From the NCBI GenBank assembly GCA_965227515.1, contig CBDDFZ010000001.1, positions 3,188,797-3,252,796 of the forward strand: a stretch of 64,000 nucleotides of DNA. The letters run 5' to 3'. Origin of the DNA: Alphaproteobacteria bacterium. GTDB lineage: Bacteria > Pseudomonadota > Alphaproteobacteria > CALKHQ01. A model generated the notes under the pieces. That model did not search any database. It was not told the origin of the DNA and saw only the letters and a list, made by a program, of their open reading frames with translations. This document shows positions 8,040-50,045 of the stretch, piece by piece; within the stretch, counting starts at the first letter, position 1; each line of letters starts with the position of its first letter. A program made the position numbers and the translations under genes.

Positions 8040-8414
8040 ATGCGCATCGCCACCCCGGCCCGTGTCACCGCAATTGCTGTCGCCGCAATCGCCACTGTCG
8101 CCAGCGCCGCGACGGCCAGCGCCCAGGACAGCACGCCCTACGATACCTCCCCGCCGGACCGCGTGGCCCCCGTCGGCCCCTCCGGCCCCGACCTGACGCC
8201 GCAGAACATCAGGCCCGTCGTCGGCGATACGGAAATCGTCGTCCCGATCATCATTCTCGGCCCCGCGCCGGGCGATACCGACTTCGAACTCGATGCCATG
8301 CTCGGCGTCGGCCCTCAAGCGCCGGCGGAAGGCGACCATGCGATCCTGGTGGCCGACGACGGCACCTGCTGGGATCTGGACACCTTCTTCCCCGAGCAGG
8401 TGCCCTGCCCGTAA
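8040..8414 (+). CDS. small secreted hypothetical protein
   Basis: Signal peptide MRIATPARVTAIAVAAIATVASAATASA. SD GGGAG lies upstream of the ATG at 8040. The protein is Pro/Asp-rich and ends CP. Confidence 0.45.
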   Translation: MRIATPARVTAIAVAAIATVASAATASAQDSTPYDTSPPDRVAPVGPSGPDLTPQNIRPVVGDTEIVVPIIILGPAPGDTDFELDAMLGVGPQAPAEGDHAILVADDGTCWDLDTFFPEQVPCP

Positions 8415-8426
8415 GCTTGATCGCTA

Positions 8427-8575
8427 AGTCGGCACCGGCCCTCTCCCATATCCATGCGGTCGCGCATCCGCGCTCTCTTTTGGCACCCGGCCACCCACGA
8501 GAGTATCCAGCGGGGTGGCCGGGTGGGGGCGAGGGCTGGCGCAGACTACAGCGTAAGCTGATCCTGATCTAAGTC
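8427..8575. repeat. family A hairpin intergenic repeat, copy 1 (longer variant)
   Basis: It shares TCGGCACCGGCCCTCTCCC...GGCCGGGTGGGGG(A/C)GAGGGCTGGCGCAGA...GCTGATCCTGATCTA with the copies at 23283 and 46441. The internal inverted repeat is CCCTCTCCC / GGGAGAGGG. It overlaps the stop codon of the DMT gene. Confidence 0.8.
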
Positions 8576-23275: not shown

Positions 23276-23282
23276 CGCATGA

Positions 23283-23403
23283 TCATTTAAGTCGGCACCG
23301 GCCCTCTCCCCCACCCGGCCGCCCCGGTACCATACTGACGTGGTCGGCCGGGAGCGGGAGAGGGCTGGCGCAGACTTCCGCGCAAGCTGATCCTGATCTA
23401 GTC
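23283..23403. repeat. family A hairpin intergenic repeat, copy 2
   Basis: TCGGCACCGGCCCTCTCCCCCACCCGGCCGCC...GGCCGGGAGCGGGAGAGGGCTGGCGCAGACTTCCGCGCAAGCTGATCCTGATCTAG. Confidence 0.8.
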
Positions 23404-23552: not shown

Positions 23553-23630
23553 GGTGGCTGTAGCTCAGCTGGTGAGAGCGCTGGTTTGTGGTACCAGAGG
23601 CCGTGGGTTCAAATCCCATCAGCCACCCCA
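23553..23630 (+). tRNA. tRNA-His (anticodon GTG) with encoded G-1 and CCA
   Basis: Cloverleaf: acceptor GTGGCTG/CAGCCAC, D arm GCTC/GAGC, anticodon stem CTGGT/ACCAG with loop TTGTGGT. T arm GTGGG-TTCAAAT-CCCAT. Discriminator C, 3' CCA, extra 5' G. Confidence 0.9.
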
Positions 23631-24072: not shown

Positions 24073-25195
24073 CGCCCTCAGCCGGCCCCGGCGCCTCCAC
24101 GGCGGGCGGACCAACATCGCCATAGTTGATAATGAGGGTTTCGCTACTCGACGAATCGCTGCTCGACACGTTCGAGCCGACCCTGGACACGCTTTGCTGT
24201 GGCGCCCCGCTGCTCGGCGCAAGGTTCAGAAGATTGCCGGCCCCGCCGGTCGCATCCTCGATTGTATCGGTGATGCCGCCGGTCGTGTCTTCGATTGTAT
24301 CGGTCACCCCGCCGGTCGTGTCCTCAATCGTATCGGTGAGACCGCCGGTCGTGTCCTGAAGCGTCTCCGTGGCTCCGCCGGTTGCACCGTCGAGGGTTTC
24401 GTCCAGCGTATCGGTCACGTCCTCCAGGGCGCCCGCCGCCCCTTCGGTCACGGTGTTGAGCAACTCGTTGAGGGGCTGGATGCCGGATTGCGGCAGGATC
24501 TCGTTGGCGGCTTCGTCCAGCGGATCGGATATCGCGCTCGCTTCGTCCGGGCTGAGCGGCCGTAACTCGATGGTGTCCGGGCAAGGGTCGTCGACCGATA
24601 CCGTGAAACCGGCCGGCACATCGACCGCGGCGCAGCCTTCGATGCTGCGCACGTTGACAACACCCTCCGTCACGCTCACCGATGAGGCGTCATTGGTAAT
24701 CGCGAACTGGGTCCCCTTCACACCGGCGATCAGGAACTCGGCGAACACCTCGAACGAGGGCCCACGCCGTGGCGACACCAGGTAATAGACATTGCCGCCC
24801 TGCTGATTGATGCGCGTGTCGGCCCCGCCCGCAGCCGGTGCCGGCAAGGCAAGTGTCGTGTTCTCGCGTATGCGGATGATGTCGCCGCCGCGGGCCAGCA
24901 CGACCTCGCTGCCGGAACTCACGGTGATGGCCTGGTATGGGCCGATCAGGTCGCCCGGGGCCATGGGGCCTGGCTCGTTCCAGGGGTTGGAGCCTGCGGC
25001 AAGGTCGGCACTGCCGCGCACGTCGATCACGGTCCAGTACTCGCTCAGCGAAACGCCAGCGTCCTGGGCTGCGGCCTGTACGGCGGCGAGTACGCCAATC
25101 AGGGCAGCCGCGACAGCGGCCACGTGACGCTCCATCGAGCGCCACCGCATCGCCCCCAAGGCGCCATCTCGCATGCCGCGTTGCCGCCGTTCCAT
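24056..25195 (-). CDS. FecR-domain secreted protein with C-terminal TDTIEDTTGG decapeptide repeats
   Basis: Signal peptide MERHVAAVAAALIGVLAAVQAAAQDA and a FecR-like core (GSEVVLARGGDIIRI...GNVYYLVSP...GTQFAI...VSVTEGVVNV). The start is ambiguous (M at 25195, 25150 or 25135). Confidence 0.65.
   Translation of the reverse strand: MERRQRGMRDGALGAMRWRSMERHVAAVAAALIGVLAAVQAAAQDAGVSLSEYWTVIDVRGSADLAAGSNPWNEPGPMAPGDLIGPYQAITVSSGSEVVLARGGDIIRIRENTTLALPAPAAGGADTRINQQGGNVYYLVSPRRGPSFEVFAEFLIAGVKGTQFAITNDASSVSVTEGVVNVRSIEGCAAVDVPAGFTVSVDDPCPDTIELRPLSPDEASAISDPLDEAANEILPQSGIQPLNELLNTVTEGAAGALEDVTDTLDETLDGATGGATETLQDTTGGLTDTIEDTTGGVTDTIEDTTGGITDTIEDATGGAGNLLNLAPSSGAPQQSVSRVGSNVSSSDSSSSETLIINYGDVGPPAVEAPGPAEGDGRGR
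24240..24400. repeat. five 30-bp tandem repeats inside the FecR-like CDS
   Basis: Units CGCCGGTCGTGTC(T/C)TCGATTGTATCGGTCACCCC encode T-D-T-I-E-D-T-T-G-G on the minus strand. Confidence 0.75.
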
Positions 25196-39397: not shown

Positions 39398-41086
39398 ATG
39401 CCTGACGACACAGCCCTGACACATCTGGTGATCCTGTTCGCCGCGGCGGTCATCGTGGTGCCGCTGTTGCGTTACGGCAAGGCGAGCCCGGTGCTGGGCT
39501 TCCTGTTGGCCGGCGTGATCGTTGGGCCTTCGGGTTTCGAGCTCGTGCCGGAATCGGAGCTGACGGCCACGCTGGCCGAGTTCGGCGTGATGTTCCTGCT
39601 GTTCGCCATCGGGCTGGAACTTTCCATCGAGCGCCTGCGGGCCATGCGCTACCTGGTGTTCGGGCTGGGCGCGGCGCAGTGCGCGGCCTGCGCCATCGTC
39701 ATTGGCGGGTTTGTCTATCTGATGGGGGCGGGCGGAGCGGCGTCCATACTTATCGGTGCGGCCCTGGCCTTGTCGTCCACGGCGTTCGTCATGCAACTCC
39801 TGGACGAGCGCGGCGAGCTGGCCTCCCAGCACGGCCGATCCGCGTTTGCCATCCTGCTGTTCCAGGACCTGGCCGCCGTGCCGCTGATCGCGTTGGTCGG
39901 CGTCCTGGGTGGCGATGCCGCCGAGATCGGCATGGCGGTGCTGACCACGTTCGGTGTCGCGCTGGGCGTTTTCGCCGGCATCCTGATTATCGGCCGGGTG
40001 GTGCTGCGCCCTGCCCTGCGGCTGGTCGCAACCAGCCGCAGCGCGGAGATCTTCACCGTCGTGACCCTGCTGCTTGTGATCGGTACCGGCTGGCTGACCC
40101 ACCTGTTCGGGCTCTCCATCGTGCTCGGCGCGTTCCTGGCCGGCATCCTGCTGGCCGAGACCGAATACCGGCACCAGGTGGAGGCCGACATTCGGCCATT
40201 CCGCGGCGTGCTGCTGGGGCTGTTCTTCACCACCATCGGCATGTCCATCGACCTGTCGGTGGCGATGGAGCGCTGGGGCGAGCTGGTCCTCATCGTGCTG
40301 GGCCTGATGCTGACCAAGGCGCTGCTGATAACCCTGGTGGCCTGGGTTTCGTCCCGGCGATGGACCGATGCGGTGCGCACTGGCGTATTCCTGGCCCAGG
40401 GCGGCGAGTTCGCCTTCGTCGTTTTCGAACTGGCCGGCCGCGAGGGCCTGATCGAGGCCGACTTGCGGCAGATCCTGGTCGTGTCGGTCGCGGTCTCAAT
40501 GCTGCTGACGCCGCTGTTGGTCGGTGGGGCGGCGCGCGCTATCCGTCATGTCGAAGCGAAGCGGCGCGGCGACCAGAAGTTTGCGGCGCCGGATGCCGAG
40601 GACGTCCAGAACCATGCCCTGATCGCTGGCTTTGGCCGCACCGGGCGCACGATCGCGGAGATCCTGGTGCGCCAGGGCTTCAACTACGTGGCGCTGGACC
40701 AGGACCCCGCCGCCGTGGCGGAGGCGCGCAGCAAGGGCTTGCCGGTCTACTACGGCAACGTGAACCACTCCCACGTCTTGGAGGGCGCCGGCATCGCCCA
40801 TGCCCAGGTCGCCATCGTCACCGTCAACGACACCATCGCGGCCGAGCGCACCGTGCACGCCATCAAGCGGGATTGGCCGCGCCTGCCGATCATTGCACGC
40901 GCCAAGGATGTTCCGCACGCCGAGCATCTGCAGCGCGCCGGCGCCGCCGTGATCGTGCCGGAGGTGCACGAGGCGAGCCTGCGCCTGGGCACCGAGGCAT
41001 TGACCAAGATGGGCCTGAGCCGCGAGGAAGCGCATCTGGTGATCGAGGACTACCAGACGCTGTTCAAGGACGCATGGCCGCATTGA
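39398..41086 (+). CDS. CPA2 family monovalent cation:proton antiporter with C-terminal RCK/TrkA-N domain (KefB/KefC-like)
   Basis: 12-13 TM Na_H_Exchanger core, then a IAGFGRTGRTIAEIL Rossmann RCK domain. Confidence 0.8.
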   Translation: MPDDTALTHLVILFAAAVIVVPLLRYGKASPVLGFLLAGVIVGPSGFELVPESELTATLAEFGVMFLLFAIGLELSIERLRAMRYLVFGLGAAQCAACAIVIGGFVYLMGAGGAASILIGAALALSSTAFVMQLLDERGELASQHGRSAFAILLFQDLAAVPLIALVGVLGGDAAEIGMAVLTTFGVALGVFAGILIIGRVVLRPALRLVATSRSAEIFTVVTLLLVIGTGWLTHLFGLSIVLGAFLAGILLAETEYRHQVEADIRPFRGVLLGLFFTTIGMSIDLSVAMERWGELVLIVLGLMLTKALLITLVAWVSSRRWTDAVRTGVFLAQGGEFAFVVFELAGREGLIEADLRQILVVSVAVSMLLTPLLVGGAARAIRHVEAKRRGDQKFAAPDAEDVQNHALIAGFGRTGRTIAEILVRQGFNYVALDQDPAAVAEARSKGLPVYYGNVNHSHVLEGAGIAHAQVAIVTVNDTIAAERTVHAIKRDWPRLPIIARAKDVPHAEHLQRAGAAVIVPEVHEASLRLGTEALTKMGLSREEAHLVIEDYQTLFKDAWPH

Positions 41087-41124
41087 TGGCGCCATCGCTT
41101 GCACTGCAAACGAAAAACAGACTT

Positions 41125-41306
41125 GTCGCCCTCGCCCTTGTGGCGAGGGCCCATTTATGTCCGATACGCCAATGGGTTATCGCAATGACATTGGCTGAGG
41201 GGGCAGCCGTATGCCGGGCGCTGATGCACCATGATCGAACGCCATGAAGCACCGTTCGAGCCCCGCATTTGGGAGGGGCCCTTGCCACAAGGGCAAGGGC
41301 GACGAG
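41125..41306. repeat. family B MITE-like element, copy 1
   Basis: Terminal hairpin modules TCGCCCTCGCCCTTGTGGCGAGGGCCCATTTATG ... CATTTGGGAGGGGCCCTTGCCACAAGGGCAAGGGCGA form a long TIR. Confidence 0.7.
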
Positions 41307-41333
41307 GTATGACGGCTGAGACGTGAGCTTGGA

Positions 41334-42899
41334 TTGGTAGACGTAACCCAAATCGCCTCAGAGCATGCCGTTGTCGCCGCCGGGCACCGGCTGGCGTGCG
41401 ATGCCGCGGCCGCGACCATGGGCGATGGCGGAACGGTGGCGGATGCCGCAGTGGCCGCAGGTTTCGTGCTGGCGGTCGTGAACCCGCATGCGGCCACGTT
41501 GGGCGGCGACGCGTTCGTGCTGGTCCGCGACGGGGCAACAGGCCAGGTGCATGGCGTCAATGGCTCCGGCGCCGCGCCAGCGGGTGTCGACCCGGCGATG
41601 TTTCCCGAGGGCATGCCGCGCGCCGGGCCGCAGGTCTCCACGGTGCCGGGTTTCGTTGCCGCCATGGGCGAGATGCACGAACGCTTCGGGCGCCTGCCTT
41701 GGGCGGAACTGTTGGCGCCTGCGACCGCCCTCGCCCACGATGGCTTTGAGGTCAACGCATACCTGGCGGCGAACGCTGAGCGCTGTGCCGCGTTGCTGGC
41801 GCCGAACATGCGTGCCGCCGAATTGTTCCTGCCTGGCGACACGCCATTGGCCGCAGGCGACCGGCTTGTTCAGCCCGATCTCGCACGCACGCTGGAAGCG
41901 GTGGGTGCCGACGGTGCGCAGGCATTCTATCGCGGCGCGTTGGCGGAACGGCTTGCCGCAGGCATTGCGGACACTGGCGGCCTGGTGACGGCGGCCGACC
42001 TCGCCGCCCACCGCACCCTGTGGCAAGACCCGGTCTCCGCACCCTTCTGCGGGCGCGAGGTGGTGACCATGCCGCCGAACTCCTATGGGCTGACCATGCT
42101 GTTGCAACTTCTGCTGCTGGAGCGCGTCGGCGTCGCCGACATGGAGCCGGACGGGCCAGAGTTCGTGCTGGCGGGGTTGGCGGCGCGGCGCCGCGCCTAT
42201 GCCGCCGCGGCGGATGCGATCTGCGACCCGGTGGACGGCGAAGCGGCCGCCTGGCGGCTGCTCGACCGCGCCATCGACGGCGACCTCGCGGACGGCCCCA
42301 CGCCAGCCGAGGCCGAGGGCGGCACCACCAACATCTGCATCGCCGACCGCAACGGCAACGCCGTCTCGCTGGTCGCCAGCGTGTCGGCGCCGTTCGGCAA
42401 CTGCGTGATCGCGGGCGACACCGGCGTGTTGATGAACAACCGGCTTCGGGGGTTCTCCCTCGATGCCGCCAGTCCCAACCGGCTGGCACCGGGCCGGAGG
42501 CCCGCGCACACCCTGACGCCGGCCATGGTGCTGCGGGACGCGACACCGGAATGGATCATCGGCTCGCCCGGAACCGCCGGCCAGACCTGCGTGATGGCGC
42601 AACTGATCGCCCGCCTTGTCGCCTGCAATCTGGCGCCGGCGCAGGCCCTGGCCGCACCACGTTGGTCGGTCGATTTGCAGGGCAAGCCCATTGTCGAAAC
42701 GTCTCTTGATAACAATGTATTCGACGCTATTTCTGCCAAGGAAGCCGAACTGCGCCGCATGCCAGTTGGCTGGCAGACATTCGGGTCGGCCAAGGCCTGC
42801 CACTACGGCCCCAACGGCCTGACCGCCTATGCCGATCGCCGTCGCGCGGCCGATGTTGGCGCACTGGATCGCACTCTGGACCGGGCGCCCGGGCCATAG
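41334..42899 (+). CDS. gamma-glutamyltransferase family protein (no signal peptide)
   Basis: GGT motifs (GGTVADAAVAAGFVLAVVNP, nucleophile region GGTTNICIADRNGNAVS). TTG start 28 nt after the MITE copy. Confidence 0.75.
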   Translation: MVDVTQIASEHAVVAAGHRLACDAAAATMGDGGTVADAAVAAGFVLAVVNPHAATLGGDAFVLVRDGATGQVHGVNGSGAAPAGVDPAMFPEGMPRAGPQVSTVPGFVAAMGEMHERFGRLPWAELLAPATALAHDGFEVNAYLAANAERCAALLAPNMRAAELFLPGDTPLAAGDRLVQPDLARTLEAVGADGAQAFYRGALAERLAAGIADTGGLVTAADLAAHRTLWQDPVSAPFCGREVVTMPPNSYGLTMLLQLLLLERVGVADMEPDGPEFVLAGLAARRRAYAAAADAICDPVDGEAAAWRLLDRAIDGDLADGPTPAEAEGGTTNICIADRNGNAVSLVASVSAPFGNCVIAGDTGVLMNNRLRGFSLDAASPNRLAPGRRPAHTLTPAMVLRDATPEWIIGSPGTAGQTCVMAQLIARLVACNLAPAQALAAPRWSVDLQGKPIVETSLDNNVFDAISAKEAELRRMPVGWQTFGSAKACHYGPNGLTAYADRRRAADVGALDRTLDRAPGP

Positions 42900-42943
42900 C
42901 ATAACTACGCCCTCGCACCGACCAGGGGGAGACGCATACCGCG

Positions 42944-44011
42944 ATGGCCGAACAGCTCAACTACGAGGTTGCCTGCCTGCAAACCCGCTCGCGGCAGGTC
43001 TCGCGCGACGACGACGCCCAGCGCGACGCCGATATCCGCGCCAACCTAGAGCGGATCTTCGAGCTCATCGACTACATCACAGCGTTCGGCAATTCCGAGG
43101 TGCGGCTGATCGTGCTGCCGGAATACGCCATCAACGCGCGCTGGCACCGCATGGAACTGGAAGACTGGATGCGCATCTGCACCACCATTCCGGGCCCCTA
43201 CACCGACCTGATCGGCGAGAAGGCGAAGGAGCGCAAGGTCTTCATCGCGGCCAACCTGTTCGAGGTGCACGAGGCCTATCCGGGCCGGTTCTTCAACTGC
43301 TCCTGCCTGATCGGGCCCGACGGGAAGGTGCTGATCAAACACTGGAAAAACAACAACAATGCCTGGGTCTTCCCCTACACCACGCCGTCCGACATCTATT
43401 CCGACTTCGTCGCCCGGTTCGGGCGCGAGAACCTGTTCCCGGTCGCACGCACGGAGATCGGCAACATCGGGCTGTTGACCTGCGGCGAGCTCGGATTCCC
43501 CGAGAACGCCCGCTGCACCATGCTGAACGGCGCCGAGGTGCTGCTGCACCTGACGTCGGAGCCGCACAACCTCAGCCACGGCGACGTACGCAACTGGGAG
43601 GCGCTGCGCACCGCGCGCGCCTATGAGAACAAGTGCTTCTTGGCGATGGCCAATATCGGCATGTACGAGGGCGCGCTGCGTGGCCTGCATGGCAGCCACG
43701 GCGACAGCGCCATCCACAATTTCGACGGCTCGATACTGAACAAGATCAATGGCGGCGGCGAAGGCACCATCAAGGGGCCGATCGACCTGAACGCCCTGCG
43801 CCGGGTGCGCGCCAAGCCGTTCCACCCGGTGACCCTGCGCGCCGAGATGTATGCCAAGGAGTACGAAGCCACCGTGAGCTGGCCCAATGACGGCTTCCTG
43901 GAAAAGCCGATCGAAAGCATTGAGGAGACGCGCGCCCAGTTCCGCCGCCTGGTGGAGGAGCGCCGCGCCCGCGGCATCGACAAGGCCCCCCGCGACTATG
44001 CCCCCGAGTAG
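42944..44011 (+). CDS. carbon-nitrogen hydrolase (nitrilase superfamily) amidase-like protein
   Basis: E-K-C triad context (VLPEY, HWK, LLTCGELGFPE). Confidence 0.7.
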   Translation: MAEQLNYEVACLQTRSRQVSRDDDAQRDADIRANLERIFELIDYITAFGNSEVRLIVLPEYAINARWHRMELEDWMRICTTIPGPYTDLIGEKAKERKVFIAANLFEVHEAYPGRFFNCSCLIGPDGKVLIKHWKNNNNAWVFPYTTPSDIYSDFVARFGRENLFPVARTEIGNIGLLTCGELGFPENARCTMLNGAEVLLHLTSEPHNLSHGDVRNWEALRTARAYENKCFLAMANIGMYEGALRGLHGSHGDSAIHNFDGSILNKINGGGEGTIKGPIDLNALRRVRAKPFHPVTLRAEMYAKEYEATVSWPNDGFLEKPIESIEETRAQFRRLVEERRARGIDKAPRDYAPE

Positions 44012-44063
44012 CGCCTTGCCCCCTCGCCGCCGCGTCAGCGTTCATCTGAAATCGAAGGAATGT

Positions 44064-44216
44064 TGACGCCCTCGGCCCTGTGCCGAGGGCCCATTCATCA
44101 CGCGTTCACTTGGCTTGCGGTCCTGGCTCGCTATCGCCCGCAGGTGCGGCGCGAATCTTGTAACCGATTGGGCATCGGACAAAAATGGGCCCTCGGCACA
44201 AGGCCGAGGGCGTCAA
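44064..44216. repeat. family B MITE-like element, copy 2
   Basis: TGACGCCCTCGGCCCTGTGCCGAGGGCCCATTCATC ... AAAAATGGGCCCTCGGCACAAGGCCGAGGGCGTCA. Confidence 0.7.
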
Positions 44217-44280
44217 GATGGTGGGTTGATATGCCGATAGAGGCAACATGCGCGCTCTGTTGTATCTCAAGGTCGCTCAA

Positions 44281-44850
44281 ATGCGCCGCCTGATCGTCGG
44301 CATCACAGGCGCGTCCTGCGCCATCTACGGCATCCGCGCGCTGCAGGTTCTGCAGACCGTGGACGATGTTGAGACCCACCTTGTGCTCTCGCCCTCGGCC
44401 CTGCGCACCATTGTCGACGAAACCGACGTGCCTGCGGCTGATGTCCGCGACATGGCCGACGTGGTGCACGACTACCGCGACATCGGCGCCGGGCCGGCCA
44501 GCGGATCGTTCCTTGCCCACGGCATGCTGGTCGCCCCCTGCTCCATCAAGACGCTGAGCGGCATCGCCAATTCCTACGACGACAATCTGATCGTGCGCGC
44601 CGCCGACGTGTGCCTGAAGGAACAGCGCCGCCTGGTCCTGATGTTGCGGGAGACCCCGCTGCATGCCGGCCATCTGGAGTTGATGCTGCGCGCGGCGCGC
44701 ATCGGTGCGGTCATCGCGCCGCCGATGCCGGCGTTCTACCCCCGGCCGCAGACGCTGGACGACCTGATCGACCACGCGGTCGGTCGCGCGTTGGACCTGT
44801 TCGACATCGATGCAGGTGTGGTGAAGCGCTGGAAGGACAGCGCGGGATAG
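44281..44850 (+). CDS. ubiX: UbiX/Pad1 family flavin prenyltransferase
   Basis: MRRLIVGITGASCAIYGIRALQVL and SYDDNLIVRAADVCLKEQRRLVLMLRETPLH. Confidence 0.85.
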   Translation: MRRLIVGITGASCAIYGIRALQVLQTVDDVETHLVLSPSALRTIVDETDVPAADVRDMADVVHDYRDIGAGPASGSFLAHGMLVAPCSIKTLSGIANSYDDNLIVRAADVCLKEQRRLVLMLRETPLHAGHLELMLRAARIGAVIAPPMPAFYPRPQTLDDLIDHAVGRALDLFDIDAGVVKRWKDSAG

Positions 44851-44869
44851 CTCGGCGACTGCGTAGATG

Positions 44870-46110
44870 GGCTAACGGCCCTTGTTTGGTGGCGTGCATG
44901 AGTGGTCGTCCCTCAAGATGTCGGTGTCATACACGGAGTCGGGTTTGCCGCTCCAAGACATCGAGGAGAGACGACCATGAACTACTATGCCGGGATTGAC
45001 GTTTCTTTGGAATGGTCATCGGTGTGCGTTGTTGACGGCGCGGGCGGGATTGTCTGCGAGGCTCGTATTGCGAGCACGCCGGCGGGTTTGTTGTTGTGGT
45101 TTGGGTCTTTGGGGATTTCGGTTGAGCGGATTGGTCTTGAGGCGGGGCCGTTGTCGCAATGGCTTGTGCGGGGATGTAGCGAGGGCGGTCTTTCGGTTGA
45201 GTTGCTGGAGACGCGTCATGTTGCGCGAGCGCTTTCGACGATGCCGGTGAAGTCGGACCGCTCGGACGCACGCGGGATTGCTCAGCTGATGCGTGTGGGC
45301 TGGTTTCGGCCGGTTCACTGCAAGTCTTTGGCGGCCCAGGAGATGCGGGCCCTTTTGAAGGGTCGCGACCAGCTCCGCGCGAAGCTGCACGATCTTGAGA
45401 TGCACCTTCGTGGTCAGCTGCGGAACTTCGGGCTGAAGGTAGGGCACACCACCAGGCGCAGCTTTTCGACACGTATTTCGGAGCTTGTGGCGGGGCATCC
45501 GGTACTGGAGGCGGTGGCGGGGGCGCTGCTGTCGGCACGCGATGGCCTGTTGCTATCGTTCACGGCGCTGGACCGGCAGGTCCGGGCGGCGGCGCAGGCC
45601 GACGATCGCGCTCGCCTGCTGATGACGGTGCCGGGCGTGGGGAGCATTGTCGGACTGACCTACTTGTCGGGAGTGGACGACCCCGGGCGGTTTGCCTCGT
45701 CGCGCCTGGTGGGTGCGCACTTCGGCCTGACGCCGACCAAGCGCCAGTCGGGCGAGAGCGAGGTGATGGGGCGGATATCGAAGGTAGGGGACGCCGATGT
45801 GCGCTCGGCCCTCTATGAGGCGGCACACGTGGTTCTGACCCGGCCGATCGAGGGCGGCTGGCTGAAGAGCTGGGCGATGAAGCTGGCCAGGCGTGCGGGC
45901 ATGAGGAAGGCGAAGGTCGCGCTGGCGCGCCGGCTCGCCGTGATCATGCACCGGATGTGGGTTGACGGCACACCGTTCAACCATGCCGGACCGGTGCGCC
46001 CGGCGATGGCGACAGCATGATGGCCGCGGCATAAGGAGAACCGACACACGAGCTTCGACGGGCACCGACACCGGCCCGTCGAGCGCCGTCCCGCGCCGGG
46101 ACGATGGATC
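44870..46110 (+). mobile_element. IS110-family insertion sequence (boundaries approximate)
   Basis: Contains the DEDD-type transposase. IS110 elements lack clear TIRs, so ends are not assignable from sequence. It separates ubiX from the downstream decarboxylase-like gene. Confidence 0.5.
44977..46020 (+). CDS. IS110 family transposase
   Basis: N-terminal MNYYAGIDVSLEWSSVCVVD (DEDD RuvC-like) and a C-terminal Transposase_20-like MTVPGVGSIVGLTYLSGVDDPGRFASSRLVGAHFGLTPTKRQSGE. Confidence 0.85.
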   Translation: MNYYAGIDVSLEWSSVCVVDGAGGIVCEARIASTPAGLLLWFGSLGISVERIGLEAGPLSQWLVRGCSEGGLSVELLETRHVARALSTMPVKSDRSDARGIAQLMRVGWFRPVHCKSLAAQEMRALLKGRDQLRAKLHDLEMHLRGQLRNFGLKVGHTTRRSFSTRISELVAGHPVLEAVAGALLSARDGLLLSFTALDRQVRAAAQADDRARLLMTVPGVGSIVGLTYLSGVDDPGRFASSRLVGAHFGLTPTKRQSGESEVMGRISKVGDADVRSALYEAAHVVLTRPIEGGWLKSWAMKLARRAGMRKAKVALARRLAVIMHRMWVDGTPFNHAGPVRPAMATA

Positions 46111-46440
46111 AGGTCAGGCCGCCATCCGGGATGTCGCCTCGCATGAGAGCACGCTTCCGTAGATTGGACCGACCGATCCTCGCATATCCATCTTGGCGGC
46201 GGCCCTGCGCCGACCCCGTACAGAAGCATGACCCAGGCGCCGGGACGACGAAAAAGGGATTGACCAACAATGGCCCGTTACAGAAGCCTGGGTGAAGCGC
46301 AGCGAAACCCGGGTTCCACTTCGTTCCACCCAGGCTACGAGCCTGAGCGAGGCCGCCACCTCCTCACAAAATTACCTTTGTAATTTCGCGAAAGAAAAAA
46401 GCTATTGTTCCGCGCCATTTTTCGTTAGCCTTGATGCATG

Positions 46441-46560
46441 GTCATTTCATTCGGCACCAGCCCTCTCCCCCACCCGGCCGCCCAACGACAGTATCCTGCT
46501 GGGTGGCCGGGTGGGGGAGAGGGCTGGCGCAGATTCAGCGCAAGCTGAGCTTGAGCTAGG
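46441..46560. repeat. family A hairpin intergenic repeat, copy 3
   Basis: TTCGGCACCAGCCCTCTCCCCCACCCGGCCGCC...GGCCGGGTGGGGGAGAGGGCTGGCGCAGATTCAGCGCAAGCTGAGCTTGAGCTAG. Confidence 0.8.
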
Positions 46561-46635
46561 CACCAATCGTGCCGATGAGGCCGCCGCGACGGGTGCATCC
46601 GCCTGGCGCCGGTGCCGTGAAACGAGGAGATTGTC

Positions 46636-47820
46636 GTGCGTAAGGGATTCCGGGTCATCGACGTAGACAGCCACGTGACGCCGTCGCTTGAGGTGCTGCA
46701 CAAATACGCCAGCCAGGCACTCAAGGACCGCTGGGACGAGTTCAATCCCTATCTGCGCGAGATGAACTCACCCCCGGGCCGCGGCCACCCGACCGGACCC
46801 TGGCACACCATCAAGGTCAACCCGATCCCCTACAACCGCATTGCCGGCGAGAAGCCCGGCGTGGAGTTCGCCGAAAAGGGCGGCAAGGGCGCCTTGGAAT
46901 CGCGGGTCAAGAATATCTCGAAGTACGAGTGTGCCGAGCGCATCCAGCACGACAATCCCGATGGCCGTGTCGCCGACATGGACACCGAGGGCGTGGACGT
47001 GAACGTGCTGATCCCGGGCACCTGGGCCTCGGCCTCCACCGCACTCGATCCTGGCCTGTCGTCGCTGCTCTACGGCGCCTATCACGACTACATGGCGGAT
47101 TTCTGCAGCGGTCACCCCAACCGTCTGCTGGGCCTGTTCCTGGCGCCCGGCAACAACATCGAATGGGCGGTGGAGAACCTAAAGAAGCGCGGCGAGGAAG
47201 GCTGGGTCTCGTGCGTCTGGCCGTGCCTGCCCGAGGGCATGCCGATCGACGACCCGGACCTGGAGCCGTTGTGGGAGGTGATGAACGACCTGCACCTGCC
47301 GATCATCCACCACTCGTTCTTCTATGAGCCGCCGTACTTCCCGGGGTATCGCGACATCTGGGGCAACGCCGCCATCGCGCGCACCGCCGCCCACCCCTGG
47401 GGCGCGCAGCGCCTGCTCGCCTACGTGATTGCCGGCGGCATCCTGGACCGGCACCCCAACATCAAGGTGGGCTTCGCGGAAACCGGACACGGCTGGCTGC
47501 CCTACTGGGTGAAGCGTCTCGACAGCCAGGTGACCTATGTCGCCGGCACCGTGCGCCCGCTGAAGTACCTGCCCAGCGAATACGTCAAGATGGGCCGGGT
47601 GTTCTGCTGCATCGAAAGCCACGAGGGCCCGGAGATGACCAAGGCGGTGATCGACGTGCTGGGCGACGGCTGCCTGATGTATGCCTCCGACTTCCCACAC
47701 CCGGAGTGCGACTGGCCGCATTCGGTCGACAACGTGATCGCGTGGGAGAACCACCTGGGCAACGAGCCGCTGCGCAAGCTGTTGGGCGCCAACGCCGACA
47801 ATTATCTGCGCGTCGCCTGA
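46636..47820 (+). CDS. amidohydrolase-2 family metal-dependent hydrolase/decarboxylase-like (ACMSD/LigW-type TIM barrel)
   Basis: N-terminal VIDVDSHV metal-binding start, then the HHSF and ETGHGWLPY...ASDFPHPE motifs of PF04909-like enzymes. AGGAGA SD and GTG start. Confidence 0.65.
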   Translation: MRKGFRVIDVDSHVTPSLEVLHKYASQALKDRWDEFNPYLREMNSPPGRGHPTGPWHTIKVNPIPYNRIAGEKPGVEFAEKGGKGALESRVKNISKYECAERIQHDNPDGRVADMDTEGVDVNVLIPGTWASASTALDPGLSSLLYGAYHDYMADFCSGHPNRLLGLFLAPGNNIEWAVENLKKRGEEGWVSCVWPCLPEGMPIDDPDLEPLWEVMNDLHLPIIHHSFFYEPPYFPGYRDIWGNAAIARTAAHPWGAQRLLAYVIAGGILDRHPNIKVGFAETGHGWLPYWVKRLDSQVTYVAGTVRPLKYLPSEYVKMGRVFCCIESHEGPEMTKAVIDVLGDGCLMYASDFPHPECDWPHSVDNVIAWENHLGNEPLRKLLGANADNYLRVA

Positions 47821-47872
47821 TCGGCAGGCGTGGCGTAGACTGCGGGCTTCGGCGAACAGCGGGACACCGGTC

Positions 47873-48700
47873 TTGGATTACGAGGACGCGCACCGCTACG
47901 TCGCCCGCGCTCGGGCGGAAGGGGCAGCCCGAGACACCAAGGTGACGGTGGCGATCCTGGATGCGGCGGGCCACCCGGTGCTGGTGGCGCGCGGCAAGCC
48001 GGATACGTGGCACGGGCCGTACATGGCCATGGGCAAGGCGCGGCTGGCGGCGGCGTTTCGCAAGCCGACCGCCGACCTGCTGGAGCGCTGGGAGGACCGG
48101 CCGCTGTTCGCCCAGAGCCTGACCGAGGTCATCCCCGGCGGCGTGACCCTGAACAAGGGTGGCTACCCGATCTTCCGCGACGGCAAATGCGTCGGTGCGA
48201 TCGGGGTTGGCGGCGGGTCGCCAGATATCGATGATGCGGTGGCCAGGGCGACGGTGGAGGCGCTGGCGGATGATGCGCCCGATGATGCGAGCAATGAGGC
48301 GGAAGTGACTGATAATTTGGAAAAGACGCCGATCCACACCGATGGCGCGCCGACGCCGACCGGGCCGTTCAACCAGGCCATGGTCTGGAACAATCTGGTG
48401 TTCACCTCGGGCCAGGCCGGGCGCAACCGGGAGACCGGCCAGATGGGCGACATCTCCGATCAGGCGCGGCGCTGCATCACCAACATCGGCAATGTGCTGG
48501 AGGCGTCGGGCAGCTCGCTCGCCCACCTGCTGAAGGTGACCGTGTTCCTGAAGGACGCCGCCGACTGGAAGGCCTTCAACGAGGTCTACGTCGAGTTGGT
48601 GCCGGAGCCGCGCCCTGCCCGCTCCTCCGCGGTCGTGCAGCTCAAGAACCCGGACATGCTGGTGGAGATGGAGGCCGTGGCCTACGTGCCCCAGAAATGA
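47873..48700 (+). CDS. fusion protein: GlcG/HbpS-like (DUF336) domain + RidA (YjgF/Endoribonuclease L-PSP) domain
   Basis: The N-terminal half (VTVAILDAAGHPVLVARGKPDTWHGPYMAMGKARLAAAF...GGVTLNKGGYPIFRDGKCVGAIGVGGGSPDIDD) matches GlcG-type proteins. The C-terminal half (PTPTGPFNQAMVWNNLVFTSGQAG...VTVFLKDAADWKAFNEVY...MLVEMEAVA) matches RidA. TTG start. Confidence 0.6.
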   Translation: MDYEDAHRYVARARAEGAARDTKVTVAILDAAGHPVLVARGKPDTWHGPYMAMGKARLAAAFRKPTADLLERWEDRPLFAQSLTEVIPGGVTLNKGGYPIFRDGKCVGAIGVGGGSPDIDDAVARATVEALADDAPDDASNEAEVTDNLEKTPIHTDGAPTPTGPFNQAMVWNNLVFTSGQAGRNRETGQMGDISDQARRCITNIGNVLEASGSSLAHLLKVTVFLKDAADWKAFNEVYVELVPEPRPARSSAVVQLKNPDMLVEMEAVAYVPQK

Positions 48701-48732
48701 TGACAGCACGGCACCACCACACCCACCCGTCA

Positions 48733-48905
48733 TCCTCGCCCTTGTGGCGAGGATCCATTCATGGCCAGCGCGCGAGCCGCGGGCTCGGCTTGCGGCGCAC
48801 CGTGGTGGAGCGCATAGATGTCCTTGCAGGACCGGCAATCACGAACAAGGCCCGCAATCGCGCCCTGCACAGCGATGGGTCCTCGGCACAAGGCCGAGGA
48901 CGACG
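48733..48905. repeat. family B MITE-like element, copy 3
   Basis: TCATCCTCGCCCTTGTGGCGAGGATCCATTCATGG ... GCGATGGGTCCTCGGCACAAGGCCGAGGACGACGA. Confidence 0.7.
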
Positions 48906-48923
48906 ATATTTTGTTGGAAAAGC

Positions 48924-50045
48924 ATGCTCCGCATCGTCGACCTGAAGAAGAGCTACATCGCCGACGACGAGCGGGTCGACGCCCTGCGCGGCATCTCGTT
49001 CGAGGTCGACGAGGGCGACTTCTTCACCCTGCTCGGCCCCAGCGGCTCGGGCAAGAGTACGGCGCTGCGCTGCGTCGCCGGCCTGGAGCACGCCCAGGGT
49101 GGCGAGATCTGGATCGGCGACCAGTGTGTGTTCTCGGCCGAAAAGCGGATCATGGTGCCGCCGGATGCGCGGCCCATCGGCATGGTGTTCCAGTCCTACG
49201 CCATCTGGCCGCACATGTCAGTGTTCGAGAACGTGGCCTTCCCGCTGCGCCACGGCTCCACCGAGGGTCGCCTCGGCCGCGAGCAGATCCAGGAACGGGT
49301 CGACGAGGCGCTGGGCAAGGTGCACTTGCAGGGCTATGGCGCGCGGCCCGCGCCGCAGCTTTCCGGCGGTCAGCAGCAGCGTGTCGCGCTGGCCCGCGCC
49401 CTGGTGCGGCGGCCGAAGCTGCTGCTGCTCGACGAACCGTTGTCGAACCTGGACGCCAAGCTGCGCGAGGAAATGCGGATCGAGTTGAAGGAAATCACTG
49501 AAGCGCTTGGCATCACGGCATTTTTCGTCACCCATGACCAGATCGAAGCGCTGGCGATGTCCGACAGGATCGGCGTCATCATGGAAGGCAATTTGATCGA
49601 AATAGGCACCCCGCACGAGGTCTACACCAACTCGCCGAGCCGGGTGGTTGCGGGCTTCCTGGGCGTGGTCAACGTGATCGAGGGTCGGGTGACCGCGTGC
49701 GACGCCGATGGCTGCGTGACGGTGGAGACCGACTGCGGCCGGGTGCGCTCGACACGGGCCGGCGGTGTGGCGACGGACACCCAGGCCGCCGTGGTCATCC
49801 GCCCGGAGGCGCCGATTTGCAGCCGCATCGCCCCCGCTGACGACCCGACGGCCAGCAATGTGTTCGAGGGCACGGTGACCAGCGTGTCGTTCCTGGGCGG
49901 CTACATCGATGCCGAGGTCGAGATTGCCTCCAATGGCGCCGGCCCGCGGCAGCTCAAGGTCAGCCTCAACCCCTACGACCACTTCACGCCGGGCGAGCGC
50001 ATCTACGTCCAGGTGCCGCAGGACCGCTGCCAGGTACTGCCTTAG
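48924..50045 (+). CDS. ABC transporter ATP-binding protein (PotA/FbpC-like with C-terminal TOBE domain)
   Basis: Walker A GPSGSGKST, signature LSGGQQQRVALARAL, Walker B LLLLDEP and an H-loop. No adjacent permease or SBP. Confidence 0.8.
   Translation: MLRIVDLKKSYIADDERVDALRGISFEVDEGDFFTLLGPSGSGKSTALRCVAGLEHAQGGEIWIGDQCVFSAEKRIMVPPDARPIGMVFQSYAIWPHMSVFENVAFPLRHGSTEGRLGREQIQERVDEALGKVHLQGYGARPAPQLSGGQQQRVALARALVRRPKLLLLDEPLSNLDAKLREEMRIELKEITEALGITAFFVTHDQIEALAMSDRIGVIMEGNLIEIGTPHEVYTNSPSRVVAGFLGVVNVIEGRVTACDADGCVTVETDCGRVRSTRAGGVATDTQAAVVIRPEAPICSRIAPADDPTASNVFEGTVTSVSFLGGYIDAEVEIASNGAGPRQLKVSLNPYDHFTPGERIYVQVPQDRCQVLP

Follow-up and report, generated by a model that had tools for sequence, protein, structure and literature searches.

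CGTC-tagged REP doublets in an uncultured alphaproteobacterium and their link, in other genomes, to a small GIY-YIG nuclease gene

What are the three short repeats, each with a hairpin at either end, that lie close together in a 64-kb stretch of DNA from an uncultured alphaproteobacterium (the window, meaning the whole stretch analysed), and which enzyme, if any, could have spread them? An initial annotation made from the DNA letters had described them as copies of a 150-180-bp MITE (miniature inverted-repeat transposable element) or, alternatively, of a repetitive extragenic palindromic (REP)-like element. The present analysis identifies them as head-out (HH) doublets of CGTC-tagged REP hairpins, a repeat class known since 2013 to which the window adds a new member, and finds hairpins of the same class beside a gene for a GIY-YIG nuclease in other genomes. 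Taken as a whole, the best explanation in our view is that the three are inserted, non-autonomous CGTC REP HH doublets whose GIY-YIG nuclease partner would be encoded elsewhere in the genome, and to this reading we give a probability of roughly 0.6.

The three copies, here called c1, c2 and c3, were present where they had been annotated, and their limits were refined from the inverted-repeat arms (Table 1). A search of the complete window with the hairpin pattern CCTCGSCCYTGTGSCGAGG, allowing up to 3 mismatches, recovered the six termini of these elements as its sole matches, a seventh being one palindrome re-read on the opposite strand; 100 shuffled controls gave a mean of 0.42 matches and none reached seven. 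In a structural scan all six termini had a 9-bp stem, perfectly paired, and a loop of 5 nt, CYTGT, bearing out the annotated hairpin-containing inverted ends. The unpaired heads in front of the stems read (C/T)G(T/A)C (TGTC, CGTC, TGAC, TGAC, CGTC and CGTC), and the tails behind them CCA in five hairpins and CCC in one. All three pairs are inverted with heads outward and tails inward. A repeat finder paired the two ends of each doublet as inverted repeats of 31-44 nt with 90-94% complementarity, and it also assigned the left ends of the three to a family of direct repeats and likewise their right ends. The left end of c1 and the right end of c2 have 44 nt in common at 91%, a likeness that suggests amplification inside this genome.

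The spacers within the doublets, 98-127 nt long, are unrelated to each other. Only a 26-nt stretch beside c1-left and c2-right was similar (score 30 against 14.2 ± 2.3 in shuffled sequences) and the remaining core pairs were at the level of the shuffled controls, so that the annotated wording of loosely related cores was correct and, if anything, generous. Since the cores are unrelated, the conserved unit is not the 150-180-bp element that had been proposed but a hairpin module of ~35 nt that occurs in inverted pairs and is laid out as head CGTC, 9-bp stem, loop CTTGT and tail CCAT. The right hairpin of c1 carries a compensated change from C-G to T-A that keeps its stem paired. In the minimum-free-energy folds of all three intergenic regions the left end pairs with the right end, making a long single hairpin possible.

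This layout matches the CGTC-tagged REPs defined by Di Nocera, De Gregorio & Rocco (BMC Genomics 2013; PMC3733652), which is the REP-like option of the initial annotation. The published class has a terminal unpaired CGTC (variants TGTC and CCTC), an 8-9-bp stem whose first and second positions are 'almost invariably' A-T, a 4-5-nt loop and a short CCA tail, and it occurs predominantly as HH dimers with the tags outside and spacers of 20-100 bp. In the same study these REPs were prevalent in Alphaproteobacteria including Caulobacter crescentus and had no associated transposase gene; a dedicated enzyme was not known, and whether they are still mobile was left open. The REP-encoded peptides of the CGTC-3 group in Oligotropha and Rhodopseudomonas (Additional file 3 of PMC3733652) back-translate to CGTC-AT-stem-CTTG(T/A)-stem-AT-CCA, examples being VIAGLDPAIH from Rhodopseudomonas and WMPGTRPGMT from Oligotropha, and from these peptides we infer CGTC-3 loops of CTTGT or CTTGA.

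With CGTC-3 the window elements share the CGTC or TGTC head (four of six hairpins), the 9-bp stem and 5-nt loop (six of six), the CCA tail, the head-out arrangement (three of three pairs) and variable spacers, as well as their occurrence in Alphaproteobacteria, mostly between co-directional or convergent genes and with no transposase nearby. They depart from it in the two TGAC heads, in the stem start, which is A-T only in c3-left (AT...AT) and G-C or G-T in the other five (GC...GC or GT...AC), and in the spacers, which are at or slightly above the published length. The AT form is the commonest in Brevundimonas-type relatives, with CGTCAT heads in 74 and ATCCAT tails in 76 of 214 related hairpins. 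As all defining features except the A-T stem start are present, the elements are filed as HH doublets of a CGTC-3-like REP. A further difference from the published description, which reports no dedicated enzyme, is that a GIY-YIG gene is bracketed by the same hairpins in other genomes.

An exact-pattern scan with one genome per species matched at least 91 genomic loci (L001-L091), mostly from Caulobacter and Brevundimonas, with others from Labrenzia, Rhizobium, Ferrovibrio and an Acetobacteraceae metagenome-assembled genome (MAG). Among the matches listed, 70 of 71 close pairs had the head-out +/- orientation, none was in tandem, and the pair spacings clustered at ~75, 84 and 109 nt. Across genera, loop, head and tail are conserved (G at -5 in 198 and C at -3 in 188 of the 214 related hairpins), and variation is found inside the stem, in the form of compensated changes (CGCC/GGCG, CGGC/GCCG, TAGGC/GCCTA, TGGGC/GCCCA and CGGG/CCCG). 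In 92 distinct variants picked by loop, head and tail only, with the stem not used, eight stem pairs were at least 98% paired, five of them with two to four types of Watson-Crick pair; the hairpin structure is kept by selection or by a templated process. Complementarity between the outer flanks, assessed in 86 doublets of L001-L091, was at chance beyond position -7, so that the element ends there. In the ~10 nt outside the ends the 5' flank contains 3-8% G and the 3' flank is correspondingly C-poor, in genomes of ~66% G+C, and the same bias was seen in all three window copies (e.g. 48712-48727 and 48907-48923). The bias points either to a preferred kind of target or to an outer part of the element that had gone unrecognised.

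The search for a cognate transposase that the initial annotation had recommended proved productive, in that an enzyme gene bracketed by such ends was found, although its product is a GIY-YIG nuclease rather than a transposase belonging to a known insertion sequence (IS) family. An open reading frame (ORF) of ~99 aa with the GIY-YIG catalytic domain (PF01541) recurs between neighbouring hairpins of the loci selected by the REP: all five GIY-YIG genes in these loci lie within ~110 nt of window-type hairpins, four of them between two doublets. Since these loci had been chosen for the hairpin, the test was repeated in reverse with 80 metagenomic loci selected only by protein similarity. A strict detector (perfect 8-bp stem, loop of 4-6 nt, CGTC-like head and CCA tail) counted 119 hairpins within 250 nt of the gene (37 kb in all) and 1 in the remaining 289 kb. 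A relaxed detector, for which the tail was not required, gave 5.2 hairpins per kb near the gene compared with 0.055 per kb elsewhere, and a flanking hairpin in 72 of the 80 loci. The enrichment around the gene is thus about 90- to 900-fold, and most of the remaining eight loci had, on inspection, degenerate or differently built REPs. The gene-flanking hairpins belong to several stem families, including that of the window and, in L175, the ATTGCGAG family also found in L094, a relative of the window; all carry the CGTC head and, save for a few exceptions such as the ATTGCGAG type, a CTTG-type loop. Hairpins of the CGTC class are tightly and specifically linked to this one GIY-YIG subfamily.

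Two layouts of gene and hairpins recur. In one, a doublet lies on each side of the gene, with complete doublets on both sides in 13 loci; in the other, the gene lies inside a doublet, with the '+' hairpin 16-50 nt ahead of the start codon and the '-' hairpin 4-45 nt past the stop. The two ends of the latter type are identical in L135, L131 and L118, and in L135 (3934-4319) they form a 386-bp unit with 32-nt perfect inverted ends of exactly the window's hairpin type. Gene and solo doublets are found in one genome in Caulobacter endophyticus BI (L003 and nine solo loci) and in the Caulobacter MAG BIN43 (L062 and five solo loci). In eight Brevundimonas-like contigs the gene occupies one position between two conserved host genes, and another variant of it occurs in a single genomic context (10 places, among the matches listed).

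Orthologues of the nuclease show a ratio of non-synonymous to synonymous polymorphism (pN/pS) of 0.24 and conserved GIY, YIG, Arg, His, Glu and Asn positions. Both the sequence and the predicted structure (predicted local distance difference test score, pLDDT, 91.6) are closest to UPF0213 (1ZG2), Slx1 (6SEI, 7CQ3) and the UvrC N-domain. The family comprises at least 3,293 clusters, named at source only as 'GIY-YIG nuclease family protein' or 'putative endonuclease'. No link of GIY-YIG proteins to REPs, to REP doublets forming hairpins (REPINs), to MITEs or to palindromic repeats was found in the full-text literature searched, the coverage of which was incomplete, and the literature found on REPs and REP-associated tyrosine transposases (RAYTs) made no mention of GIY-YIG. 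The association is therefore apparently unreported, which is less than proven new.

Four related loci with the same gene cluster (L092, L093, L094, which is MAG GCA_041396705.1, and L095) were compared with the window, to which their coding DNA is 72-87% identical over most aligned blocks and 64-71% in the weakest. The junction between the CN-hydrolase gene and ubiX measures 269 nt with c2 in the window and 18 nt in L095; L092 and L093, whose cluster is without ubiX, are not comparable here. At the L-PSP/ABC junction, the window has 225 nt with c3, while the genes overlap in L092 and are 6 nt apart in L093, the L095 contig not including this junction. L094 carries doublets at both junctions, and these are of a different CGTC family (ATTGCGAG...GCAAT stems), with a likeness to the window doublets at the matching junctions that is at chance level. 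Because these junctions are compact in L092, L093 and L095, the window doublets are insertions into ancestrally compact junctions, and different hairpin families have settled at the same junctions, either independently or by re-colonisation.

On the best reading, the window doublets would be partners of the GIY-YIG unit that lack the gene. By analogy with REPINs, they would be non-autonomous mobile DNA, and the enzyme recognising the foot of the hairpin would be the ~99-aa Slx1/UPF0213-like GIY-YIG nuclease rather than a RAYT or a DDE transposase. The nuclease gene would lie elsewhere in the genome, itself bracketed by the same hairpins, and the window doublets would depend on that copy. The minimal unit would be ~390 bp long and consist of REP(+), ORF and REP(-). 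The nuclease might act on CGTC hairpins as RAYTs do on GTAG REPs; it would cut at the unpaired head and tail once the DNA is extruded as a hairpin or cruciform, and the copying would be finished by repair, recombination or replication of the host. To the more specific proposition, that CGTC REPs constitute a second, mechanistically distinct REPIN-like system with this nuclease as the partner, the ~390-bp unit as its selfish form and the window doublets as its gene-less satellites, we would give even odds.

Several points weigh against this interpretation, beginning with the two TGAC heads and five deviating stem starts described above. The 64-kb window contains no GIY-YIG gene, and searches of its spacers for a remnant of one (tblastn with 80 proteins; a profile hidden Markov model against six-frame translations) returned chance-level matches only, so that a derivation of the doublets by internal deletion is not supported. 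No filled/empty pair precise at high identity, such as would fix the exact ends and target, was found among the compared loci, the indels seen belonging to other elements. The GIY-YIG genes reside at fixed, vertically inherited loci, which would suit a domesticated partner of the RAYT type, and just as well a housekeeping nuclease to which REPs are drawn. A hydrolytic GIY-YIG nuclease is unable to rejoin DNA alone and, to our knowledge, no transposition chemistry is known for the fold, so that host functions would be needed to finish the copying. Lastly, the association gives no direction: the gene could parasitise the doublets or process them for the host.

The main rival accepts the same doublets and facts, with the dependence reversed or removed. 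The hairpins would serve the host as mRNA 3'-end stabilisers, weak terminators or protein/cruciform sites, and the nuclease would not mobilise them, its gene being a free-standing, homing-endonuclease-like user of the doublets as landing sites or encoding a structure-specific resolver of hairpins at replication forks that is regulated by its own flanking REPs. The GIY-YIG genes at fixed orthologous loci and under purifying selection are consistent with this account, as are the predicted fold, which resembles that of Slx1, a resolver of branched DNA, the doublets just past the stop codons of co-directional genes, the T-rich tails on two hairpins and the argument that many REPs act as RNA elements (Di Nocera et al., PMC3733652). 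However, a function in cis alone leaves unexplained the insertions relative to compact junctions, the differing families at one junction in close relatives, the near-exclusive clustering of hairpins at the gene in otherwise poor genomes (1 strict hairpin in 289 kb) and the perfect 32-nt inverted ends around an ORF, and most hairpins have no U-tract. We regard this account as possible though doubtful.

A far less probable explanation is that one or more copies are small RNA (sRNA) genes, for example mmgR/suhB-like (minus strand, 44174-44251), or plain intrinsic terminators. A full-length match to RF00519 reached 29.7 bits, where the gathering threshold is 41 (E = 0.005 over an 8.2-kb region and 0.0002 over 301 nt), and its anti-Shine-Dalgarno core CCUCCUCCC is replaced by CAACCCACC; the c2-right REP hairpin together with CCATTTTTGT imitates the terminator of the mmgR/suhB sRNA. 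The region is absent at the matching junction in L094 and L095, and no Rfam family reached threshold anywhere on the elements, a tRNA being the only family at the gathering threshold in the window. Terminator-like matches were found at c1-left and at c2-right on the minus strand, the only two of the six hairpins followed by a T-rich run; the other four have none. The initial annotation had suggested that the elements may supply promoters or terminators. Only these two hairpins resemble a terminator in their T-rich tails, and a promoter scan of 40900-49100 predicted no sigma-70-like promoter.

More improbable still is a classical MITE, that is, an internally deleted derivative of an IS with a DDE transposase, moving by cut-and-paste with target-site duplication. 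The 31-36-nt terminal inverted repeats, the length of 160-185 bp and the intergenic location agree with such an element, but no direct repeats, and hence none of the target-site duplications that the initial annotation had proposed to look for, surround the three window copies or the 86 doublets. As the 5' flank is G-poor and the 3' flank C-poor, the flanks, complementary in composition and not identical, cannot be duplicates of each other. Furthermore, the cores are unrelated, no IS with these ends was seen in ~1.1 Mb of related loci, the only nearby IS is of the IS110 family and has no such ends, and only the GIY-YIG unit combines a coding part with these ends. Finally, chance likeness of generic GC-rich palindromes, short examples of which are common because the genome is 66% G+C and which the initial annotation had named among the findings that would refute its own reading, can be dismissed, since none of the 100 shuffles reached the observed count, at least 91 loci exist elsewhere, loop, head and tail are conserved across genera and the orientation is fixed in 70 of 71 listed pairs.

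Table 1. Doublets, hairpins and flanking gene limits in the 64-kb window.
Feature	Coordinates	Strand	Description
Doublet c1	41122..41306		Two inverted REP hairpins, heads out, ~127-nt unrelated spacer; 31-nt arms, 90% complementary
c1 left hairpin	41128..41150	+	TGTC-GCCCTCGCC-CTTGT-GGCGAGGGC-CCA, then TTTATGT
c1 right hairpin	41278..41300	-	Minus-strand reading: CGTC-GCCCTTGCC-CTTGT-GGCAAGGGC-CCC
c1 flanks			KefB-like gene stop 41086; gamma-glutamyltranspeptidase (GGT) gene earliest start 41334
Doublet c2	44060..44219		36-nt inverted arms, 94%
c2 left hairpin	44068..44090	+	TGAC-GCCCTCGGC-CCTGT-GCCGAGGGC-CCA
c2 right hairpin	44189..44211	-	Minus-strand reading: TGAC-GCCCTCGGC-CTTGT-GCCGAGGGC-CCA, then TTTTTGT; underlies the sub-threshold Rfam mmgR match
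c2 flanks			CN-hydrolase gene stop 44011; ubiX probable start 44281
Doublet c3	48728..48906		Inverted hairpin pair
c3 left hairpin	48732..48754	+	CGTC-ATCCTCGCC-CTTGT-GGCGAGGAT-CCA; canonical form, type identical to Brevundimonas copies
c3 right hairpin	48879..48901	-	Minus-strand reading: CGTC-GTCCTCGGC-CTTGT-GCCGAGGAC-CCA
c3 flanks			HbpS/L-PSP fusion gene stop 48700; ABC ATPase gene start 48926

The genes around the doublets all lie on the + strand, in the order KefB-like antiporter, GGT, CN-hydrolase, UbiX, IS110-family transposase, amidohydrolase, HbpS/L-PSP fusion and ABC ATPase. All three doublets occupy spacers between same-strand genes, 28-49 nt past the upstream stop and ~16-62 nt ahead of the downstream start; annotated as intergenic and immediately upstream of start codons, they are intergenic but sit equally just downstream of stops. 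For ubiX, comparison with the relatives makes a start at 44281 more likely than one at 44248. Effects of the doublets on their neighbours, such as transcript 3'-end stabilisation or weak termination, would be secondary, and local effects on the flanking operon are likely to be modest. The HbpS-like and L-PSP domains form a single 275-aa ORF at 47873-48700 and in L094, and are encoded by separate neighbouring genes in L092 and L093. A megablast search of 41000-49000 against a plasmid collection gave no match.

The view of the 41-49-kb region as a plasticity zone holds in the comparison with the relatives: their junctions are compact or hold other repeats, and between ubiX and the amidohydrolase gene neither the IS110 element nor the family A repeat is present in any of them. 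The GGT/CN-hydrolase spacer of L093 (9819-10001) is filled by another palindromic repeat (…CCTCGCCCTTCGACAAGCTCAGGGTGAGGCCCTCATCCCCGGATTTAATCCGGGG…), which again points to small repeats gathering in the spacers of this gene cluster. The IS110-family element of the window (44851-46366) lies in the ubiX/amidohydrolase spacer, from which it is absent in L094 and L095; its transposase ORF (44902/44978-46020) contains PF01548 and PF02371, and its long 3' non-coding part (~265-345 nt) suggests the layout of an IS1111-like element that has a guide (bridge) RNA on the 3' side. It was rejected as the cognate enzyme of the doublets, being a separate insertion that is absent in relatives and has none of these ends. 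Just past its 3' region is a back-to-back pair of GTAG-like REPs (46285-46336; GAAG/GTAG-CCTGGGTG...CCCGGG). Since IS110-family elements are known to target REPs, this pair may be the target of the IS110 insertion.

A second repeat with dispersed copies, family A, is ~100-150 bp in length, forms a long hairpin on folding (GCCCTCTCCCCCACCCGGCCGCCC / GGGTGGCCGGGTGGGGGAGAGGGC) and is present at 8414-8571, 23277-23400 and 46436-46560. One copy adjoins a tRNA gene (23554-23627), and the copy at the third site is missing from L094 and L095; the matches of the family A hairpin in Rfam at the E-value threshold were limited to spurious miRNA precursors. At 24208-24405, five to six 33-bp units (CCGCCGGTCG-YRTCYTCGATTGTATCGGTGA-like) stand in tandem, probably as a coding repeat.

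The three repeats alone are an ordinary example of a catalogued class, and their value lies in the lead to the nuclease, an association that makes the question of an enzyme for CGTC REPs, and of their mobility, experimentally concrete. If the proposed partnership is true, a hydrolytic, structure-specific nuclease would join the classes of enzyme by which dispersed repeats spread through bacterial genomes, and the ~390-bp unit, with two perfect hairpin ends around a nuclease ORF, would be among the smallest autonomous-looking elements known. If confirmed, it would mean that populations of REPIN-like repeats have at least two origins, each with an enzyme unrelated to the other, and would provide a function for the unnamed GIY-YIG proteins, whose family is very large (at least 3,293 clusters).

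Among known systems, bacterial MITEs (Correia, ERIC, RUP and others) resemble the doublets in being small, intergenic and non-autonomous with terminal inverted repeats, whereas the doublets have no target-site duplication, TA ends, conserved core or DDE parent. For the CIR repeats of Caulobacter, described in a review as two arms and a linker with a GANTC site, no evidence of identity was found; a GANTC site (GAATC) is present only in c2. Single-strand hairpin-end transposons of the IS200/IS605 type share (sub)terminal hairpins, a short unpaired tag beside the stem and insertion without duplication, but combine unlike left and right ends with an HUH TnpA, where the doublets have symmetric ends and a GIY-YIG association. 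Also close are free-standing GIY-YIG homing endonucleases; homing endonuclease genes are selfish and rely on the repair of breaks to spread. The ~99-aa protein has neither a DNA-binding extension like that of I-TevI nor an Slx4 partner; its fold and catalytic residues match those of Slx1/UPF0213 (YhbQ-like) proteins, and Slx1 cuts branched and hairpin-like DNA.

The REPIN-RAYT system was rejected as the identity of the window elements, which carry a CGTC and not a GTAG tag and have no adjacent RAYT: tblastn with eight RAYT and terminal inverted repeat-associated tyrosine transposase (TIRYT) sequences gave no match in the window, nor next to any CGTC hairpin of 94 loci. The sole RAYT match, in L094 (2990-3345), is frameshifted, 43-62% identical to E. 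coli RayT in two frames and flanked by GTAG REPs (GTAGCCCGGATGGAGCGCAGCGCAATCCGGG), and the GTAG/RAYT and CGTC systems therefore coexist in this lineage. REPINs (Bertels & Rainey 2011, PMC3116915; Nunvar 2010, PMC2817692) are nevertheless like the CGTC doublets in consisting of two inverted REPs that can fold into one long hairpin. Common to both systems are numerous copies without a gene, a nuclease gene that is vertically inherited, occupies a single locus and has the same REPs on its flanks, and the lack of target-site duplications. What sets the CGTC system apart is its head, CGTC and not GTAG, and the nature of the associated enzyme, a hydrolytic GIY-YIG nuclease in place of an HUH/Y1 tyrosine transposase.

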